Of a stretch of DNA of 45,860 nt, positions 10,432-45,860 are shown in pieces. Under the pieces are notes generated by a model. That model saw nothing but the letters and a program-made list of their open reading frames with translations, searched no databases and had not been told where the DNA came from. A program made the translations under genes and the position numbers. Every line of letters begins with the position of its first letter. Positions within the stretch are counted from its first letter, which is position 1. Source of the DNA: Alphaproteobacteria bacterium (lineage in GTDB: Bacteria > Pseudomonadota > Alphaproteobacteria > M2410); the NCBI GenBank assembly GCA_006226305.1, contig SBHG01000173.1, positions 1 to 45,860 of the forward strand, given 5' to 3'.

Positions 10432-11298
10432 TCAGGCCTCTGTCAGGGGCGGGTCTACCGCCTCCGGGCGTCCAGACCAGCTCCACCCGACCGTGGACCT
10501 TGAAACGCCTAAGAGTAACCCATGAAGATCACCAGGATGTGACCAAAAATTGTCTTTTTCTGTCTCCATCGAAGGTCCGCGCGGGGTGCACCGGGCACCA
10601 GCGCCCAAAAACCGGTCCACAAGCCCTTCAAAATCATGGGACTCGCAGTAGCACATATTGAGCGAATCCCCGTGTTTGGCCACATAACGCGCCATGGGAA
10701 CATCCGCCTTGACCACCTGGCTAAGCTCTATCCGGTCAAGCCGGTTGGGCGGATCAAACAGTGTGAGTGTCCCTTCATAGCCCCAGCGTTCACTGGCAAT
10801 CCCGTGAAACCGCTGCGCCTCAAGGCGAAACAATCCGGCAAAGTGCGCCGCCGCCTGCCGCCAGTCTGATTTCAGCGTATTGGTAAACTCATAAAGAAAA
10901 CTAACCGGCCCGACCCGGCGGCGCGGCGCACTTGGGCTGATCACAAGCGGCACCCCGAAGTGGTCTTTCCCGTCGAGGTAAAACTGCGCGCCATCTTCAT
11001 GCACCGCAAACCCCAAGCCTCCGATATGGGCTTTAAGCGCCGCCATATCATGGGTTGAGATCCCCCCGCGCATTAGACCCTCCCCGCGCTTGCCCAGAAA
11101 ATCCTGAGTGAGGCCCGCGCCATCAGCTTCACAAAGCTCAAGCTCGCTTTCGCCCATAGCCAATATCGTTCGCCGCGCGCCTAAAAAGGCGCTGGTGTCC
11201 TGCCGCGCCACTTCTGTACCCAGCAGCCGATTGAAAGTCTCTGCCGCCTTTTCAGCGGAGTGAACCGCCAATTGCACCCGATCAATACGGTCCATCAT
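10432..11298 (-). CDS. tandem VOC/glyoxalase-family protein (methylmalonyl-CoA epimerase-like fold)
   Basis: RIDRVQLAV...ELEL...FLGKRGEGL, with a second copy RIELSQ...YVAKHGDSL...HPGDLHG. Confidence 0.7.
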   Translation of the reverse strand: MMDRIDRVQLAVHSAEKAAETFNRLLGTEVARQDTSAFLGARRTILAMGESELELCEADGAGLTQDFLGKRGEGLMRGGISTHDMAALKAHIGGLGFAVHEDGAQFYLDGKDHFGVPLVISPSAPRRRVGPVSFLYEFTNTLKSDWRQAAAHFAGLFRLEAQRFHGIASERWGYEGTLTLFDPPNRLDRIELSQVVKADVPMARYVAKHGDSLNMCYCESHDFEGLVDRFLGAGARCTPRGPSMETEKDNFWSHPGDLHGLLLGVSRSTVGWSWSGRPEAVDPPLTEA

Positions 11299-12437
11299 GC
11301 CATACCCTCCAAAAATCGCTTCACCCGCCGCTCCACATTCTCGCGGATATTCATATAGAACAGGCTGTAATCGAAATTATGCAAACTGCCGCCGGGCCCC
11401 GCGATTGCCGACAAGCGCTCCGGCTTGTTGGAAGCGGCAATAAGCTGGCCCTCCACATTGCGGGTAGACACGTTGAAATCTTCCAGGATCTGGATATCGT
11501 AGGTATCGACGCCCATGGGTACCCCATCATAGAAAATCGACATATCGATGTTCTTGGATTTAACGCGCAAAACTCCTTTGTGCAGATCAGCGGGCGCCGC
11601 CTCTGTTCCTCTTTTCCAAAGCAGGGGATTAATCGCCACTTTTTCCTTGCCGAGCGAGGCCTCCCAGCCCTCGGGGTAATAATGGCCCACCGCCATATCC
11701 GCGACCATGTTTTCAAACCCTGCCTGGATCGTATCCCAGGTCACCACGGTCCGCAGGTCATCTGCATGTTCACTCATTTTGATTTGAGAAAGTGTGCGCT
11801 CAAATTTGTCAGTGGGGATACGTTGGCCGATGACATAGCCTGAAACAAACCTGTCAAAGAGCTCACTCCCGTCGATTTTTTCTTCAAGTAAACGGATGCC
11901 ATGATTAGACCCCTGGCTGTGCCCAGCTATGACGAAAGGTCGCCCCTTGTTGTCATGCTCTATGTAGTGCTCAAAAGCGCGCACCACATCTTCATAGGCA
12001 AACTCAAGCGCCCGGCGCCCGTTCAGCCCCCGATCGAGAAAGGAAAAGAGGGTAGCCTGGCGATAACGCGGCGCATATATGCGCGTGCATCCGTTAAACA
12101 CCGTTGCTTGCGCGGGAATGACCAGTTCATCCACCCATTCGTTGGCACGCGCGTCGCCAAGATCCGCATTCCAGTTGTGTTTACCGAAGAAGGTCGTTGG
12201 ATGAATGAAAAAGCAGTCGACCTGGGCCTTGTCTTGCCCATCGCGGCAATCACGATTGCTCGGCACCATGGTGGATTTCGCCTCAAATCCTGGCCGGACC
12301 GCCCAACTGGCCGGATCTGAGTAATCCGGCGCCGATGGCGCCAGCGCCGCATCGAACTCATGGGTCGGCATAATCTTGGACAAGAGCGCGCGAAAACCTT
12401 CCTCGCGCGCATTTCTGGGTGGTTGGGTCTCATTCAT
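11295..12437 (-). CDS. DUF3089-type alpha/beta hydrolase
   Basis: PDYS..ASWA, VDCFFIHPTT, YAPRYRQA, nucleophile motif GHSQG, and LHNFDYSLFYMNIRENV. Confidence 0.85.
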   Translation of the reverse strand: MNETQPPRNAREEGFRALLSKIMPTHEFDAALAPSAPDYSDPASWAVRPGFEAKSTMVPSNRDCRDGQDKAQVDCFFIHPTTFFGKHNWNADLGDARANEWVDELVIPAQATVFNGCTRIYAPRYRQATLFSFLDRGLNGRRALEFAYEDVVRAFEHYIEHDNKGRPFVIAGHSQGSNHGIRLLEEKIDGSELFDRFVSGYVIGQRIPTDKFERTLSQIKMSEHADDLRTVVTWDTIQAGFENMVADMAVGHYYPEGWEASLGKEKVAINPLLWKRGTEAAPADLHKGVLRVKSKNIDMSIFYDGVPMGVDTYDIQILEDFNVSTRNVEGQLIAASNKPERLSAIAGPGGSLHNFDYSLFYMNIRENVERRVKRFLEGMA

Positions 12438-37985: not shown

Positions 37986-38070
37986 TGGTGCGGATGGAGA
38001 GAATCGAACTCTCACTCCCGAAGGAACGGGATTTTGAATCCCGCGCGTCTACCAATTCCGCCACATCCGC
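37986..38070 (-). tRNA. tRNA-Leu(CAA)
   Basis: GCGGATGTGGCGGAATTGGTAGACGCG-CGGGA-TTCAAAA-TCCCG, long variable arm, GAGAGTTCGATTCTCTC, CATCCGC-ACCA; 85 nt with encoded CCA. Confidence 0.97.
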
Positions 38071-41415: not shown

Positions 41416-42327
41416 ATGACAGAGCCCGAAAAGTTGCCCCCAGGTGTTTTAAACATCACCACCCGGTTTGCCCCGAGCCCGACGGGCTTTCTCCACCTGG
41501 GACATGCCTTCGCCGCTTGGCAGGCTTTTGGATTCGCGGCCCAAAATAACGGGCGATTCGTTTTGCGGATTGAAGACACCGACCACACACGGTGTCGTCC
41601 GGAATTTGAAACCGCAATTCTGGAGGATCTACATTGGCTTGGCCTGACCTGGGAAGAGCCGGTACGCCGCCAATCCGACCACCTTGCCGTCTACAAAAGC
41701 TATATCGACCACTTAACAGAGCTTGGATTGACCTACCCCTGCTTTTGCAGCCGCAAGGAAATCCTGGAGGCCTCCGCGGCGGCAAACCTTCCCATTGGCC
41801 CGGACGGTCCCCTTTACCCAGGGACTTGCCGAAAGCTGACCCCGCGCGAAATCCACAGGCACCAAGCAGACGGCAGATCCCATGTCCTGCGACTTGATCT
41901 CACCGAGGCGCTCAAAAAGGTTCCCCCAAGTCTTACATTTGATGAGGTCGGTAGTGATGGCAGCCTTCCCAAGGGGCCAACACCTGTCGATGCCACATCC
42001 GCGGGCGACATCGTTCTGGCGCGCAAAGGCTCGACCACCAGCTATCATGCCTCCGTGGTCGTTGATGACCACCTGCAAGGCATTACTGATGTCGTGCGCG
42101 GCCGCGATCTTTATAGCGCGACACATATTCATCGCCTGTTGCAAGAACTTTGGGGGTTTGAGGCGCCGCGTTATCACCACCACGACCTCCTGCTCGACAG
42201 CGATGGCCGCAAACTTTCCAAGCGCGACCAGGATCACGCCATTCGCGCCATGAAAAAGGCGGGCAAAACGCCCGCCGATCTCAAAGAAATGATTGAGGAA
42301 AATCTGGCCGCTCAGAACCGCGGCTGA
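41416..42327 (+). CDS. gluQ: tRNA glutamyl-Q(34) synthetase GluQRS
   Basis: RFAPSPTGFLHLGH, YPCFCSR, YPGTCR and KLSKRD; about 300 aa with no anticodon-binding domain. Confidence 0.93.
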   Translation: MTEPEKLPPGVLNITTRFAPSPTGFLHLGHAFAAWQAFGFAAQNNGRFVLRIEDTDHTRCRPEFETAILEDLHWLGLTWEEPVRRQSDHLAVYKSYIDHLTELGLTYPCFCSRKEILEASAAANLPIGPDGPLYPGTCRKLTPREIHRHQADGRSHVLRLDLTEALKKVPPSLTFDEVGSDGSLPKGPTPVDATSAGDIVLARKGSTTSYHASVVVDDHLQGITDVVRGRDLYSATHIHRLLQELWGFEAPRYHHHDLLLDSDGRKLSKRDQDHAIRAMKKAGKTPADLKEMIEENLAAQNRG

Positions 42328-42330
42328 GCC

Positions 42331-43005
42331 TTACCAATCATTCAGGCCGACAAAATTTTTGAAGCCCGCCGCCTTGGCCCATTTCTCCCACTCTTCACGC
42401 AGGCGCTTGGTCTCACTGGGTGAATTGATCCCGCGGCCCAGGCCCAGGATCTGGAGCTCAGCGCAGCGATAAAAGATCTTCTTCTCCGGCAAGGGCAATT
42501 GCGCGTCCCGGTGAATGAGCCGAACATATTCAGAGTCTTCCACACCGTCCGTCACCAGAATGATTGTGGTCGGCATCTCCCGGCAATCAAGGGTCAAGGA
42601 CAGCTCTTCCATGAAGGCAATGATATTGGTCATCGGTTGAGTTTGCAGCTTGCCCTGTTGCACCAACAGAGGAACGTTGGAAATGAAGAGTGTCATGTCG
42701 TTCTTCAGAGCTTCCGGTTCATCATTGACACTGGCTATCGCATCAAAGGTAAAGGGGTTGGCATCTGCGTCATAGGCACCAAAGGTGCGCACGGACAGCT
42801 CGGAGCGATAAACCAGCTTGCCGATCTCATCGCCAACGCGCCGCCCCGCCTTACTCGCATAAGCATTGTCGGTCACGAGCGGATTACTCGCCGAAAGATC
42901 AAGCCCAATAATGAGCCGAGATGGTCCATCATCAGCCAGGGCCTGAGACCCAAATAAGCCAAATCCGACAACGACCAGACCTGCGATCAATTTTTTCATG
43001 TTCAT
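42331..43005 (-). CDS. exported VWA-like (MIDAS) protein of unknown function
   Basis: Signal peptide ending ALA; IIGLDLSAS (DxSxS), MTNI and IILVTDG; GAGGGG RBS. Confidence 0.72.
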   Translation of the reverse strand: MNMKKLIAGLVVVGFGLFGSQALADDGPSRLIIGLDLSASNPLVTDNAYASKAGRRVGDEIGKLVYRSELSVRTFGAYDADANPFTFDAIASVNDEPEALKNDMTLFISNVPLLVQQGKLQTQPMTNIIAFMEELSLTLDCREMPTTIILVTDGVEDSEYVRLIHRDAQLPLPEKKIFYRCAELQILGLGRGINSPSETKRLREEWEKWAKAAGFKNFVGLNDW

Positions 43006-43046
43006 TTCCCGTCCCCTCTCAAATCTGATGATTATTCTAACCCATC

Positions 43047-43102
43047 GGAGAAAAAGGAACCAGAACCGGAAAGAGGTTGGAACAAAATCCGGTCCTGGTT
43101 CC
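43047..43102 (-). terminator. 15-bp stem / 17-nt loop hairpin with U-tract, 12 nt after the 4-TM gene stop
   Basis: Minus-strand RNA GGAACCAGGACCGGA-UUUUGUUCCAACCUCUU-UCCGGUUCUGGUUCC-UUUUUCU. One position pairs as G-U only on this strand. Confidence 0.8.
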
Positions 43103-44252
43103 GAGCGAGGCGTTCTATCTCAATTGAAACGCCAGAGAGTCCAGACGGCGCAAACGCTCGGTACGCACCAGCCGGTTCTGATAATCGCGGCCAACCGCGA
43201 ATTTTTGCACACCTTCTTCAGCCCAGATCAGGAACAAAGCGCCAATCGAAGCAACCAGGAAGAAGATGACAGACAAAGACAACATCCATCCGAAGGCATC
43301 ATAAACAGCCAGCTGTTCCATCCACTGCGGCAGCTCTACCGGCGGGCGGGATGCGTTGACAGACGTATTTTCAGGCTCCAGACCAAGGGATTCCAAGGCA
43401 CTGCCGAGGCTCGACCGGCTGGTATCGCGCCCTTCAATGGTCGCTTGATTGTCATTCGGCAAGGAATTGTGGGCATAGAGGAAGCCCAGCGAAAGCATCA
43501 TGGCGACCGTGAGGGCAAAGATTGTGCCCACAAAGAGGTTCCGCCCCCAGACCGGCAAGATACGCAGGAACAGGTGAATACCAATCGTGGCAAAAAGCAC
43601 CTGGAAGGATTTAAACCAGACAGAACCTGCCAGCTCGGGCGGCAGTTGCATATACTCATTGACCATGGCCTGGTGCCAAAACTCTTTGATGATGTGGAAA
43701 TCAACAAACAGGGCCGCCACAACAATCAGGGTGCAGGCGATGGCGCCGCCGAAATAGATGGACTGAAATTTGGAAAACCGGCGCGACAGCTCAAGGTTCT
43801 TTGAAATGACCCGGTCAGCCGCGGTTTTTGAATTGTAATTATAAAGCGCCTTGCTTTTGCTTTGCAGCGAGCCTTTTCCCCGTTCAATCAGGTTCGGGTT
43901 TTCCGCGCGGCGCTGTGCGCTTTCATCGACAGAAAACTCAAGACCGTGCTTGCGTGAATAGGCAAGCTCAACCAGCTCACTCCGCAAATTATCGGCGCGA
44001 TTGCGGATCAGCTCATAGGCTTTTTCCTGCGTCAGCTGGCTGTCGCTATGGATTTTTTCCCATACTTCATCAACCAGATCCGACACAAACACCTCTTCAA
44101 GCAATCCGCTTGAAGCATCATGATTAATCTCTTCGGGATTACCGCGCGCCGGACGGCGTGCTTCACCGCCAACCGGCAATTCGTGAACTGTCGCTTCATA
44201 TTGAGCTTTCAGCTCATCTCTTTGAAAAATGCTCATGAGTTCCAACCTCTTT
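43070..44252. repeat. perfect 14-bp inverted repeat flanking the 4-TM gene
   Basis: AAAGAGGTTGGAAC at 43070-43083 and GTTCCAACCTCTTT at 44239-44252. Confidence 0.92.
43115..44236 (-). CDS. hypothetical membrane protein (helical N-terminal domain + about 4 TM)
   Basis: 373 aa from ATG 44236 behind AAAGAGG; four hydrophobic segments in the C-terminal half. Confidence 0.8.
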   Translation of the reverse strand: MSIFQRDELKAQYEATVHELPVGGEARRPARGNPEEINHDASSGLLEEVFVSDLVDEVWEKIHSDSQLTQEKAYELIRNRADNLRSELVELAYSRKHGLEFSVDESAQRRAENPNLIERGKGSLQSKSKALYNYNSKTAADRVISKNLELSRRFSKFQSIYFGGAIACTLIVVAALFVDFHIIKEFWHQAMVNEYMQLPPELAGSVWFKSFQVLFATIGIHLFLRILPVWGRNLFVGTIFALTVAMMLSLGFLYAHNSLPNDNQATIEGRDTSRSSLGSALESLGLEPENTSVNASRPPVELPQWMEQLAVYDAFGWMLSLSVIFFLVASIGALFLIWAEEGVQKFAVGRDYQNRLVRTERLRRLDSLAFQLR

Positions 44253-44490
44253 TTGCACTGTGCTCTTGATGCCAAGAGCTATTTCCCAAGTTGTGGTCCA
44301 GACAGACTCACAGGGTTCGTGAGCCATCTGAACCGTTCACGCTACTTTGGGATCCATGATTTTCTGGTACGCCCCAAAACCCTTTAAACCTGAACAAGCG
44401 GAGGGTTCCGCTTCTCTCCCGGTTTTCACATCCCCCTACCGTCTGATGTGCTTTCCGAGGTTTCAGCAAGGCCCTCAAGCGGCCCCTGCT

Positions 44491-44498
44491 ATGGTTAA
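44491..44498 (-). promoter_or_regulatory. CtrA half-site TTAACCAT upstream of the 4-TM gene
   Basis: atggttaa on the plus strand, co-oriented with the downstream minus-strand gene. Confidence 0.5.
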
Positions 44499-44681
44499 TA
44501 AGTTGCTGCCCAATTGGGGCGGGTGTCAGTGCTGAATAAGGCCAAAAAAAGAAATCTTGCAGAAGATTGAGGCGATTTTGCCTCAATTGAGTCGGGACGC
44601 CGCAGCCGCGGACAGCATCTCAATTTGCCTCAAACCTCAACTAAGAGTCGAGTCAAATTGCAGAACGCACCCTAATAAAAG

Positions 44682-45860
44682 TCAGAATTTCTGCGGAATA
44701 ATATAAAAATAGCCCGACAGTGCCCGGCGATAGTCCTCTACCGCCAGATCCGGCGAGGAGGCCCCCATTTCCTGCGCCGCCAATCGGCAGCCCTTATCGA
44801 GGCTATAAAGAAAAATGGGTTCATAAATCTTTTCAAATTCGGCCACCGACAAGGGGTGGGAAAAAATTAGCCCGTCCAGGGGCAAGGCTGAAAACTGCCC
44901 AGCCCGGGAGGACGGATAACTCGGCTCAAGGCGAATACCGCCCGGCTCGCGATAAGCGGCGACCGCGGGCTCAGGCGCACCGTCCGCATCGGTCCAGCAG
45001 AACGGCAAGTCTGAAAAGGCGACCGGCTCCGAAACACCGCTCGCCGCCGATCCAGCAAGGCCGGAGCTGTCAGCCCCCTCAATGCCGCCAACCGTTTCTA
45101 TGCCATCTGAGGCAATGCCATTGGCTCCCTCATCGCCCGTGGCGCCCGCATCATATCCTTCTTCGGCGAGGGTGCTATTGCTGGCGGATTGATCCCCGCC
45201 AACTGAGACCTGCGCACCTCTCTTGCCATAGGCCCGATCATCATCGCCATCTTCAAACGAGCCAAATTGCGAGTAGTTGTCATAGGAGTTTTCAAAGGCA
45301 ACGTTTCCATCATCGCCAGCAAAAATATAGTCGGCGCCAACCCAGATCGCGCCGATAACAATCGCCAGAGCGCCAAAACCCACAAGCACACCACCGACGG
45401 GCAAACCCTCTGATCTTTGCTCCGCCTGAGTGATCGATTTGATGAAATAGTCCGCACACTGACCAGCAGAGGCAAAACTACTTTTCTTGCCGCGCGGCTG
45501 GATCATTTCCCAACCCGAAGGGGTTTTGCCAGTCATGCTGCGGGCAATCACCACATACTGCCAGTTAAAGTGCGCCGGCCATTCAGGCGGCGCCTTGACA
45601 AGAAGATTGCCGTCTTCCTTCGCTGGCCAGGCGTCTGGCGGCGTATCACTCCCCCGAAAGAAAACCTTGGCCTCGCAGCGTTGTTCTTTGGGCGCATGTT
45701 TTTGCGAGGGTCTGGCTCTGGGGGCCCCGAACCAAGAGGTCACCGGCGCCTTGGGCATTTGCCCCGTCCACTGCACGGTAACGCAGCCCTCCTCTTCGCT
45801 GAGAAGCACATCAAAGCCTTTGACCGGACGGGCAGCCTGCATGGCGCGGCTGCGAATGGC
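44682..45860 (-). CDS. hypothetical single-pass membrane protein, probably truncated at the window edge
   Basis: Frame is open from ATG 45842 to the right edge; one TM segment (VGGVLVGFGALAIVIGAIWVG), an acidic G/D/S/A-rich linker and a small C-terminal domain. Confidence 0.7.
   Translation of the reverse strand, partial: AIRSRAMQAARPVKGFDVLLSEEEGCVTVQWTGQMPKAPVTSWFGAPRARPSQKHAPKEQRCEAKVFFRGSDTPPDAWPAKEDGNLLVKAPPEWPAHFNWQYVVIARSMTGKTPSGWEMIQPRGKKSSFASAGQCADYFIKSITQAEQRSEGLPVGGVLVGFGALAIVIGAIWVGADYIFAGDDGNVAFENSYDNYSQFGSFEDGDDDRAYGKRGAQVSVGGDQSASNSTLAEEGYDAGATGDEGANGIASDGIETVGGIEGADSSGLAGSAASGVSEPVAFSDLPFCWTDADGAPEPAVAAYREPGGIRLEPSYPSSRAGQFSALPLDGLIFSHPLSVAEFEKIYEPIFLYSLDKGCRLAAQEMGASSPDLAVEDYRRALSGYFYIIPQKF

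Follow-up and report, generated by a model that had tools for sequence, protein, structure and literature searches.

A hairpin loop downstream of an alphaproteobacterial membrane-protein gene that complements the gene's own ribosome-binding site

Can the 3' end of a bacterial message mask the ribosome-binding site (RBS) at its own start? The question is raised by a locus in the window, the whole 45,860-nt stretch of alphaproteobacterial DNA that was analysed (assembly GCA_006226305.1, contig SBHG01000173.1). An earlier note on this DNA had described a hairpin downstream of a gene for a membrane protein with four hydrophobic segments (the 4-TM gene), and proposed that its loop serves as a functional anti-RBS on the gene's own message, whether in cis or through a 3' fragment set free from it. 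Natural masking of an RBS by the 3' end of the same bacterial message is rare, the cases named in the literature drawn on here being icaR, hbs and OppZ/CarZ.

The hairpin loop and its complement at the gene start

The geometry was read directly from the minus strand and agrees with the earlier description. Twelve nucleotides after the TAG stop codon (43117-43115) begins a 15-bp stem that closes a 17-nt loop and runs directly into a U-tract (Table 1). The stem holds nine G-C pairs, five A-U pairs and one G-U pair. As had been claimed, the G-U pair works on the coding strand only, as it would become an A-C mismatch if the plus strand were transcribed, and we count it toward RNA-level selection on the minus strand. 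Upstream of the ATG (44236-44234) and its 5' flank, TC, lies AAAGAGGTTGGAAC (44252..44239), and comparison base by base with 43083..43070 confirmed a Watson-Crick complement at 14 of 14 positions, 13 of them in the loop. The note had listed a true start codon elsewhere as grounds for dropping the idea; the ATG is backed by a conserved MSxF/MGEF N-terminus among relatives.

Table 1. Features of the 4-TM locus, with positions in the window.
Feature	Position	Strand	Description
5' leader block	44315..44395	minus	81 nt; 100% identical to the congener G001; nothing in Rfam
Leader hairpin H1	44295..44334	minus	17 predicted pairs
Leader hairpin H2	44262..44279	minus	GCUCUUG-GCAU-CAAGAGC; just 5' of the RBS
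91-nt block	44178-44268		identical in G000 and G001; contains the RBS 14-mer
RBS 14-mer	44239..44252	minus	AAAGAGGUUGGAAC; SD GAGG(U) and most of the spacer; one partner in the proposed pairing
4-TM membrane-protein gene (P0001)	43115..44236	minus	373 aa; four hydrophobic segments
222-nt block	42965..43186	minus	identical in G001; last 24 codons, stop, hairpin, whole spacer, RBS and first 13 codons of the partner gene
Hairpin	43056..43102	minus	15-bp stem (one G-U pair), 17-nt loop
Hairpin 5' arm	43102..43088	minus	GGAACCAGGACCGGA
Hairpin loop	43087..43071	minus	UUUUGUUCCAACCUCUU
Hairpin 3' arm	43070..43056	minus	UCCGGUUCUGGUUCC
Anti-RBS 14-mer	43070..43083	minus	GUUCCAACCUCUUU; 13 bases of the loop and the adjoining base of the 3' arm
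U-tract	43047..43055	minus	UUUUUCUCC; directly after the stem
Partner gene (P0002)	42331..43005	minus	224 aa; signal-peptide-like N-terminus

The match is confined to these two places. The 14-mer has exactly two exact copies in the 2,690,390-base assembly, the RBS and the loop, and two matches in the window at up to two mismatches. Each stem arm is likewise single-copy, and the element is therefore not a dispersed repeat, a possibility that had been named as fatal to the idea; a REP- or MITE-like origin was ruled out on the same grounds. The sequences flanking the two 14-mers are unrelated, giving the match sharp edges. We scanned a crude set of 2,314 genes for perfect complements of at least 14 nt between the start region (-30..+3) and the 100 nt past the same gene's stop, and the 4-TM gene was the only one to have such a complement. 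Among mismatched gene pairs, 84 of 5,352,282 reached that length, which corresponds to 0.036 expected per genome. When the loop was compared with all 2,314 start regions, as the note had suggested, its own gene ranked highest on both measures, match length (14 nt against 10 for the runner-up) and duplex energy (-22.6 against -22.3), and none of 2,000 shuffled loops paired with the start region as well as the real one.

The hairpin has the stable G+C-rich stem and the U-tract 3' of a stop codon that are expected of an intrinsic terminator, but not the short loop (usually 3-8 nt), since its 17 nt are unpaired in both the minimum free energy (MFE) and centroid structures. It was not among the terminators listed by a consensus scan that allowed loops of 3-8 nt. 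Its folding energy in a 91-nt context is -30.8 kcal/mol, and 2 of 200 shuffled sequences were equally stable.

Pairing between the two sites is predicted to be favourable. The computed energy of the RBS-loop duplex is -21.1 kcal/mol, and opening costs 4.1 kcal/mol at the RBS and 0.4-2.7 kcal/mol at the loop, for a net estimate of about -14 to -17 kcal/mol. In the MFE structure of the whole mRNA the RBS pairs instead with an internal 9-nt site at 43532-43540, which is not preserved in the congener (UUU to UUC). A full-mRNA fold in which the RBS-loop helix is imposed, even where the terminator stem is given up for it, lies only 6 kcal/mol above the minimum. A 14-bp helix formed within a closed 17-nt loop would be sterically strained. 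The 16S tail, for modelling SD pairing, was not found in the assembly.

Conservation of the message ends

The only congener, G001, is 75-82% identical in DNA to the present genome (G000), with approximately 22.5 kb aligned. Identical runs of at least 40 nt number only six over this length. One is the tRNA-Leu gene, and four lie at this locus (129 and 98 nt, together 222 contiguous nt, as well as 91 and 81 nt). Identity is 100% across the RBS and the first 19 codons of the 4-TM gene, and again across its last 24 codons, the hairpin and the spacer. In G001 the 222-nt block runs across two adjoining contigs with a 5-nt overlap, and lies within 129 and 98 nt of the two contig ends. Judged by sequence identity, the two ends of the message reach the level of conservation of a tRNA.

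Other genes are not preserved in this way. Among 22 genes compared, only the 4-TM gene is 100% identical in its start region, its first 19 and last 24 codons and the 60 nt that follow the gene; for the rest, identity in these categories is 0.39 to 0.90, except at the start of the partner gene. The body of the 4-TM gene has diverged, with synonymous changes in 127 of 374 codons and non-synonymous changes in 9, and none of the changed codons falls within the first 19 or last 24. Given the synonymous rate elsewhere (0.36 changed codons per codon), the probabilities of the frozen ends are approximately 2e-4 and 2e-5. An antisense open reading frame at 42998..43804 (268 aa) was considered and rejected, because G001 carries stops and many replacements in it.

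The leader of the message points in the same direction as the stem of the terminator-like hairpin. Between the two genomes, H1 has three substitutions in its 3' arm, all of which keep their pairs (G-C/G-U, U-G/U-A), and two more in its loop, while H2 has one stem substitution that keeps its pair (C-G to U-G) and one in the loop. Pairs are thus kept in all four stem substitutions, which we count as support for RNA-level selection on the minus strand. Rfam returned no matches for 42300-45000 at E up to 1 and, at gathering thresholds over the whole window, tRNA-Leu as the sole match. A promoter scan of the minus strand found no promoter-like site in the conserved blocks, including the conserved 3' part of the gene, nor any internal promoter from which a separate small RNA might start.

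The conserved stretches of 91 and 222 nt reach far past the 14-mers, and are therefore not specific evidence for pairing, as some other function could explain them. Also counting against the pairing, complementarity between these blocks stops at the 14 nt; the short, G-U-rich runs found beyond it were given no weight. Covariation is unreadable because the only close relative in the orthologue alignment is identical at both the RBS and the loop.

Beyond the congener the complementarity disappears. The 4-TM and partner genes are adjacent, in the same order and on the same strand, in all seven genomes of the family, several of which have no hairpin between them. A pattern search for the hairpin gave one copy in G000 and none in the six other family genomes, that of G001 being split across two contigs. 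Six orthologous loci in five other genera have longest complements of 5-7 nt, with duplex energies within the range of shuffled sequences for all six; one orthologue (G005) gave a marginal signal (p 0.018-0.042) that was picked out post hoc. Likewise, 31 metagenome loci showed no comparable complementarity, the cis distribution equalling the trans. Searches for closer relatives returned just the two already known from genome contigs, none from a first metagenome scan, and from a second, alignment-based metagenome scan 44 loci that are all 29-47% identical. Homologues of the three conserved blocks were found neither in other genera nor elsewhere in the genome, save for a third copy of the motif at G000:C134:23136-23152, an intergenic site with 17 nt in common with the start region. 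This copy is retained in G001 with one change amid diverged flanks, and could offer the loop a 13-nt partner (in G001, one G-U and 12 Watson-Crick pairs).

Pfam and NCBIfam assigned a family to none of the three proteins searched, the 4-TM protein and its partner included. The note had labelled the partner gene a VWA gene; Atlas does suggest a VWFA-like protein, which we treat as a lead only, and Pfam and NCBIfam lend the label no match.

Explanations for the complementarity

An exact complement, together with message ends conserved like a tRNA, suggests that the 4-TM message probably throttles its own translation. The reading we favour, to which we give about an even chance, is that the loop is an anti-RBS displayed on an intercistronic terminator, similar to icaR or OppZ/CarZ, and provides negative feedback in cis or in trans. 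The hairpin would act as an intrinsic terminator or attenuator between the 4-TM gene and its conserved partner, its long stable stem keeping the anti-RBS loop open. If both sites are carried on one transcript, loop RNA could pair in the cell with the SD and spacer of its own gene's start region and compete with the 30S subunit, lowering translation of the message and probably its stability. Repression in cis would set in as soon as transcription of the full-length mRNA has reached its 3' end; in trans, it would be exerted by a nuclease-resistant terminator fragment that survives decay of the mRNA. Either route would result in negative feedback on the gene's own synthesis. Counting against masking of the RBS, ribosomes can load throughout the period that precedes transcription of the 3' end. 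The functional role proposed in the earlier note is upheld in part, and more strongly than the sequence by itself had allowed. It is favoured by a unique match to the best of 2,314 targets, by the net pairing energy, and by the placing of both sites in 100%-identical blocks, where identity elsewhere, in genes, start regions and gene ends, is 39-90%; against it, distant orthologues lack the complementarity. A more elaborate version, in which structured leader, start region and 222-nt 3'/intercistronic block form a three-part RNA device conserved like a tRNA, and a loop-RBS switch senses ribosome occupancy to set both the rounds of membrane-protein translation and read-through into the partner gene, appears distinctly unlikely.

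The hairpin might instead be an ordinary intercistronic terminator or mRNA-stabilising structure, its match to the RBS arising by chance or as the decaying relic of a small inverted duplication, with the pairing having no role. The CCUCUUU half of the match, facing AAAGAGG, is of generic anti-SD composition, and at approximately 0.04 such pairs per genome, a scan of many thousand genomes would meet some by chance. Hairpins with long loops and T-rich tails are not unique to this locus, as 24 of 91 in this genome have loops of at least 8 nt and many such loops can self-pair. The congener offers no covariation, and neither other genera nor the metagenome loci have the feature. A decaying relic would not, however, be expected to show a perfect match with sharp edges, nor does chance readily account for two 14-mers that remain perfect in a congener with 39-88% identity at other start regions, or for a loop whose best target among the 2,314 is its own start region. 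Furthermore, anti-SD-like (aSD-like) sequences repress and are hence normally selected against (PMC12697547), so that a neutral 14-nt anti-RBS is unlikely to be harmless. On balance, we regard coincidence as somewhat unlikely. That the ultraconserved blocks serve another function, with incidental complementarity, is in our view unlikely. Such a function could be a structured leader combined with intercistronic control of the partner gene, recognition of GCAAAAAGAGGTTGGAA by a common protein or RNA factor, or a DNA operator 5' of both genes. It would explain why 81, 91 and 222 nt are conserved, far above what pairing needs, why the RBS and first 13 codons of the partner gene are invariant too, and why the motif copy on C134 persists with one change in G001. 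But a perfect 14-nt complement between the 91- and 222-nt blocks is expected only about 6e-5 times (78 x 209 / 4^14, uniform bases). The motif is also non-palindromic, unlike most operators, the blocks hold no promoter-like site on the minus strand by our scan, and the C134 site, which can itself pair with the loop, suits a trans-acting loop equally well.

Two further explanations accept the repeats and assign them a different output. Pairing may be real and yet control read-through, such that a free, ribosome-poor RBS that pairs with the nascent loop, or ribosomes stopping 12 nt before the stem, would hinder stem closure and 4-TM translation would set transcription of the partner gene. The anti-RBS does lie inside the terminator and extends one base into its 3' arm, the stop codon is just 12 nt from the stem, a fold with the RBS-loop helix in place of the stem comes within 6 kcal/mol of the MFE, and the gene pair is conserved in 7 of 7 family genomes, several without a hairpin between. 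At usual elongation rates, though, a partner 1.15 kb away would have just a fraction of a second to reach the loop ahead of synthesis of the 3' arm, and pairing covers just one base of the stem; we find this very unlikely. Phase variation, in which the 14-mers would serve as inverted repeats for inversion of a DNA segment holding the whole gene, is extremely improbable. Although the gene, from RBS to terminator, is enclosed by exact inverted repeats of 14 bp and the G001 assembly breaks within the hairpin, the contig ends of G001 (43058-43062) fall outside the repeat (43070-43083). The orientation is the same in G000 and G001, gene order and strand are constant in all seven family genomes, and a flipped gene would face the antisense strand of the partner gene, with no evident promoter. 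No strand-changing joints appeared in four public runs (X4, X5, X7 and X9, of 18 available as contigs), whose coverage lacks the repeats, including 43029-43190.

Comparison with known end-to-end pairings

In hok-type type I toxin mRNAs, base pairing between the 3' end and the 5' region holds the full-length message inactive. The analogy that had been drawn with hok and aapA fails here, because the product is a 373-aa membrane protein instead of a small toxin, and because the pairing covers the SD and not the extreme 5' end. The gene is moreover followed by a conserved partner, has conserved orthologues, and is opposed by a long antisense frame that is broken in G001, and we rejected a type I toxin on these grounds.

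A loop acting as an anti-RBS has closer counterparts. In the icaR mRNA of Staphylococcus aureus, an anti-SD motif in the 3' untranslated region pairs with the message's own SD and blocks the initiation complex, and the authors do not decide between action in cis and in trans (PMC3868564). The 4-TM locus shares the essential arrangement, with complementarity at 14 of 14 positions, and has no sequence homology to icaR. The icaR motif is a 7-nt UCCCCUG core in a 3' untranslated region of several hundred nucleotides, outside the terminator loop, and cleavage by RNase III was demonstrated; the present pairing is predicted from sequence and energies, spans 14 perfect nt that include the spacer, and lies between two co-oriented alphaproteobacterial genes. 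OppZ and CarZ of Vibrio cholerae are RNAs from operon 3' ends that pair with the start region of a gene in their own operon, giving negative feedback (PMC7398697). Like them, the RNA considered here would carry a terminator and a seed complementary to a start region within its own transcription unit. They are RNase E products bound by Hfq, with a stable fragment observed (PMC7398697). The OppZ and CarZ seeds reportedly lie upstream of the terminator and not in its loop.

Two other studies frame the comparison. A 2025 preprint by Gill et al. reports that aSD-like sequences hundreds of nucleotides downstream pair with the RBS in vivo and repress, that such pyrimidine-rich long-range aSDs promote decay, block initiation and are depleted from genes, and that long-range pairing may be common yet hard to find (PMC12697547). 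Those experiments used engineered 8-mers within the coding sequence of Bacillus subtilis reporters (PMC12697547); the present element occurs naturally, is 14 nt long and conserved, and is presented by a hairpin. In B. subtilis hbs both ends of the mRNA also interact, through a 5'/3'-UTR contact described as a matter of ribonuclease access and stability rather than of a terminator loop covering the SD (PMC5737220).

On the best reading, the 4-TM locus adds a case to this known kind of 5'-3' anti-RBS pairing and does not define a new kind. It would be an unusually clean case, combining a perfect 14-nt pairing, a terminator loop that displays the anti-RBS in advance, and synonymous sites frozen at both gene ends. 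Its value is lessened by an uncultured source organism, by the availability of only two sequences, identical ones, and by proteins of no known function. It also suggests a search strategy, namely to look for genes whose ends are much more conserved between sister species than their bodies. As a separate observation, a second gene of this genome (G000:C76) has a 13-nt complement between its 5' and 3' untranslated regions that is partly kept in the congener, which hints that end-to-end mRNA pairing may have been used repeatedly in this lineage.

The hairpin loop and its complement at the start of the 4-TM gene

The 4-TM gene encodes a 373-aa product with four hydrophobic segments, for which no family was matched in Pfam or NCBIfam. 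Its start codon is backed by an aligned N-terminus (MSxF/MGEF) in relatives from four other genera, which speaks against the possibility, named in the earlier note, that the true start lies elsewhere. The next gene, here called the partner gene, follows directly in all seven family genomes. It had been described as a VWA gene, a name that has an Atlas lead behind it and nothing beyond that lead.

Direct reading of the sequence bore out the first description of the RBS, stop codon, stem, loop, tail and 14-nt match in every detail. The 14-mer GUUCCAACCUCUUU complements the RBS 14-mer exactly, and the single G-U pair of the stem becomes an A-C mismatch on the opposite strand.

Features of the 4-TM locus and runs of at least 40 nt identical between the source assembly (G000) and its congener (G001)
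Feature	Position	Strand	Description
4-TM gene	44236..43115	minus	
4-TM gene start	44236-44234	minus	ATG; AAAAAGAGGTTGGAAC-TC directly 5' of it
RBS 14-mer	44252..44239	minus	
4-TM gene stop	43117-43115	minus	TAG; 12 bases before hairpin
Hairpin stem		minus	12 bases after TAG; 15 bp, one G-U pair
Hairpin loop		minus	17 nt, open; UUUUGUUCCAACCUCUU
Hairpin tail		minus	directly after stem; UUUUUCUCC
Anti-RBS 14-mer	43083..43070	minus	13 loop bases and first 3'-arm base
Partner gene	43005..42331	minus	224 aa, signal-peptide-like start
Identical runs	43058-43186 and 42965-43062		129 and 98 nt, together 222 nt contiguous; gene end, hairpin, spacer, next gene's start
Identical run	44178-44268		91 nt; RBS and first 19 codons
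Identical run	44315-44395		81 nt; leader
Identical run	37986-38070		85 nt; tRNA-Leu gene
Identical run	42247-42303		57 nt; 3' end of convergent neighbour gene (41416..42327)

The match within the genome and among relatives

In the 2,690,390-base source assembly, the 14-mer occurs exactly in two places, the RBS and the loop. Near-matches numbered 6 at up to one mismatch and 20 at up to two, against about 0.9 and 17 expected by simple arithmetic, with the surplus mostly within coding sequence. Each stem arm is single-copy, and among the family genomes the hairpin pattern was seen once; the hairpin is therefore not a dispersed repeat, a case that the earlier note had named as refuting.

For each gene in a crudely assembled set of 2,314, the start region (-30 to +3) was compared with the 100 nt downstream of its own stop codon. 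The longest perfect complement belonged to the 4-TM gene (14 nt), while mismatched gene pairs gave 14-nt complements in 84 of 5,352,282 cases, or 0.036 expected per genome. The proposed scan for other RBSs fitting the loop ranked its own start region first among the 2,314 (14 nt vs 10 for the next; -22.6 vs -22.3 kcal/mol), and none of 2,000 shuffled loops paired as well as the real one. The match is thus improbable within this genome.

Of the seven family genomes, G001 alone shares the genus. It is not a near-clone, with 75-82% identity over approximately 22.5 kb aligned, in which only six identical runs of at least 40 nt were found. Codon mapping of the 4-TM gene (374 codons) revealed 127 synonymous differences and 9 non-synonymous ones, all of them outside the first 19 and last 24 codons (P ~2e-4 and 2e-5 at the gene's own rate). 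Among 22 genes, only the 4-TM gene was 100% identical in its start region, first 19 codons, last 24 codons and 60 nt downstream. The remaining genes scored 0.39-0.90 in these four parts, except for the partner gene, which scored 1.00 in its start region and 0.98 in its first codons. Two G001 contigs, C23 (start) and C1 (end), meet within the 222-nt block with an overlap of 5 nt; the break corresponds to 43058-43062, within the hairpin's 3' arm, and both ends then run exactly as in the source assembly. Judged by this comparison, both 14-mer partners lie within sequence under nucleotide-level constraint as strong as that on a tRNA gene. The two genomes are identical at both sites, so the ortholog alignment suggested earlier has no covariation to show. 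The sole further non-tRNA identical run lies in the convergent gene, which by eye has a class-I aminoacyl-tRNA-synthetase look (GluQ-like).

Beyond the genus, the complementarity that the earlier note looked for in orthologs has no counterpart, either in five other genera (longest start/3'-region complement 5-7 nt; duplex energies within shuffle range) or in 31 usable metagenome loci of 44 found (cis complement distribution, maximum 9, equal to the trans distribution). The feature is therefore specific to the genus of G000 and G001. Hairpins with a stem of at least 6 pairs and a loop of at least 8 nt follow the gene in 6 of 35 loci, and among these only the 4-TM locus of the source assembly showed clear complementarity to its own start region. 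A relative from another genus (G005:C478, locus L006) carries a terminator-like hairpin ~25-65 nt after the ortholog's stop, whose upper part partially complements the start region of that ortholog, with 7+5 pairs spanning the start codon. This match is marginal, at p 0.042 for the folded 8-nt loop and 36 of 2,000 (p 0.018) for a 16-nt stretch picked post hoc.

Possible feedback and its alternatives

The computed energy of the RBS-loop duplex is -21.1 kcal/mol. Opening the RBS within its leader context costs 4.1 kcal/mol, and opening the loop 0.4 if its 13 bases alone are freed or 2.7 if the stem base is included. Fourteen pairs would be strained inside a 17-nt loop that stays closed. In the complete message of 1,361 nt, an RBS-loop helix in place of the terminator stem lies only 6 kcal/mol above the MFE. 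The MFE fold pairs the RBS with an internal 9-nt anti-RBS (AACCUCUUU, 43532-43540) inside the coding sequence, which is lost in G001 through a synonymous UUU-to-UUC change.

We see an even chance that an anti-RBS loop on a terminator or attenuator hairpin exerts negative feedback on the 4-TM gene. In this reading the genus would have gained an intrinsic terminator or attenuator, its stem displaying the loop, between two genes that simply adjoin elsewhere. By pairing with the SD and spacer, the loop would stop translation of the 4-TM protein, either in cis, once the 3' end of the same molecule exists, or in trans, if a stable terminator fragment acts on newly made messages; negative feedback would follow by either route. 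Published reports demonstrate the principle of a 3' part pairing with its own start region for icaR (PMC3868564), and of own-operon start-region pairing with feedback for OppZ/CarZ (PMC7398697). In a reporter study, aSD-like sequences lying far from the RBS were shown to pair with it, with repression as the outcome, and genes are otherwise purged of them (PMC12697547). The kind is thus already known; as read from sequence, what is particular here is an anti-RBS in a terminator loop together with synonymous sites frozen at both gene ends.

Since a few chance cases must arise across very many genomes, the statistics alone are not decisive, and we grant a chance match or relic a modest share of the probability. 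The frozen blocks reach well outside the paired stretch, and a search for pairing between them past the 14-mer found none, so other functions must also act; these alone could account for block conservation. Conservation for some other function, or through a shared factor, with the complementarity incidental to it, is in our estimate somewhat less probable again. Pairing that instead sets read-through into the partner gene appears improbable, and an invertible segment scarcely credible.

Leader RNA and other complementary sequences

The 445-nt region upstream of the 4-TM gene contains the 81-nt block identical in G001. Two leader hairpins (region 44295-44400, minus strand) differ from G001 by four stem substitutions, with the pair kept in all four, while four further substitutions fall in loops or unpaired positions. 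As all stem substitutions keep pairing, the leader is under selection as RNA. The region has no Rfam match and resembles an unclassified structured leader RNA. A soil metatranscriptome contig (public run X5) matches 44240-44454 without differences, stopping one base before the RBS 14-mer is complete; coming from an RNA library with possible DNA carry-over, it hints only weakly, if at all, at transcription of the leader. No contig of the public runs spans the hairpin.

Genome-wide, three genes have 5'-3' complements of at least 13 nt, against 0.11 expected. One, at G000:C76 (locus L066), has a 13-nt perfect complement between 10678-10690 (5'UTR, just before the SD) and 11400-11412 (3'UTR, before the terminator); its product, a 226-aa secreted protein, has by eye a PEP-CTERM-like tail. 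G001 keeps 10 of these pairs, including one G-U, together with 2 of the 3 flanking pairs. Behind one of the three 13-nt complements lies a dispersed palindromic repeat with AAAAGAGCCTGACCCC(G/A)AA, which forms long hairpins in the 3' regions of several G000 genes (C161:2013-3825, C50:238-985 and C73:3725-4070).

A 17-nt stretch identical to the 4-TM start region (GCAAAAAGAGGTTGGAA) occurs at G000:C134:23136-23152 (locus L011, ~1637-1653). It is intergenic, after a methyltransferase-like gene and ~365 nt upstream of a gene for a lysine/arginine-rich protein, and is kept in G001 with one A-to-G change and diverged flanks. Thirteen nt could pair with the hairpin loop, with one G-U pair in G001, and the 17-mer may be a second loop target or a shared binding motif.
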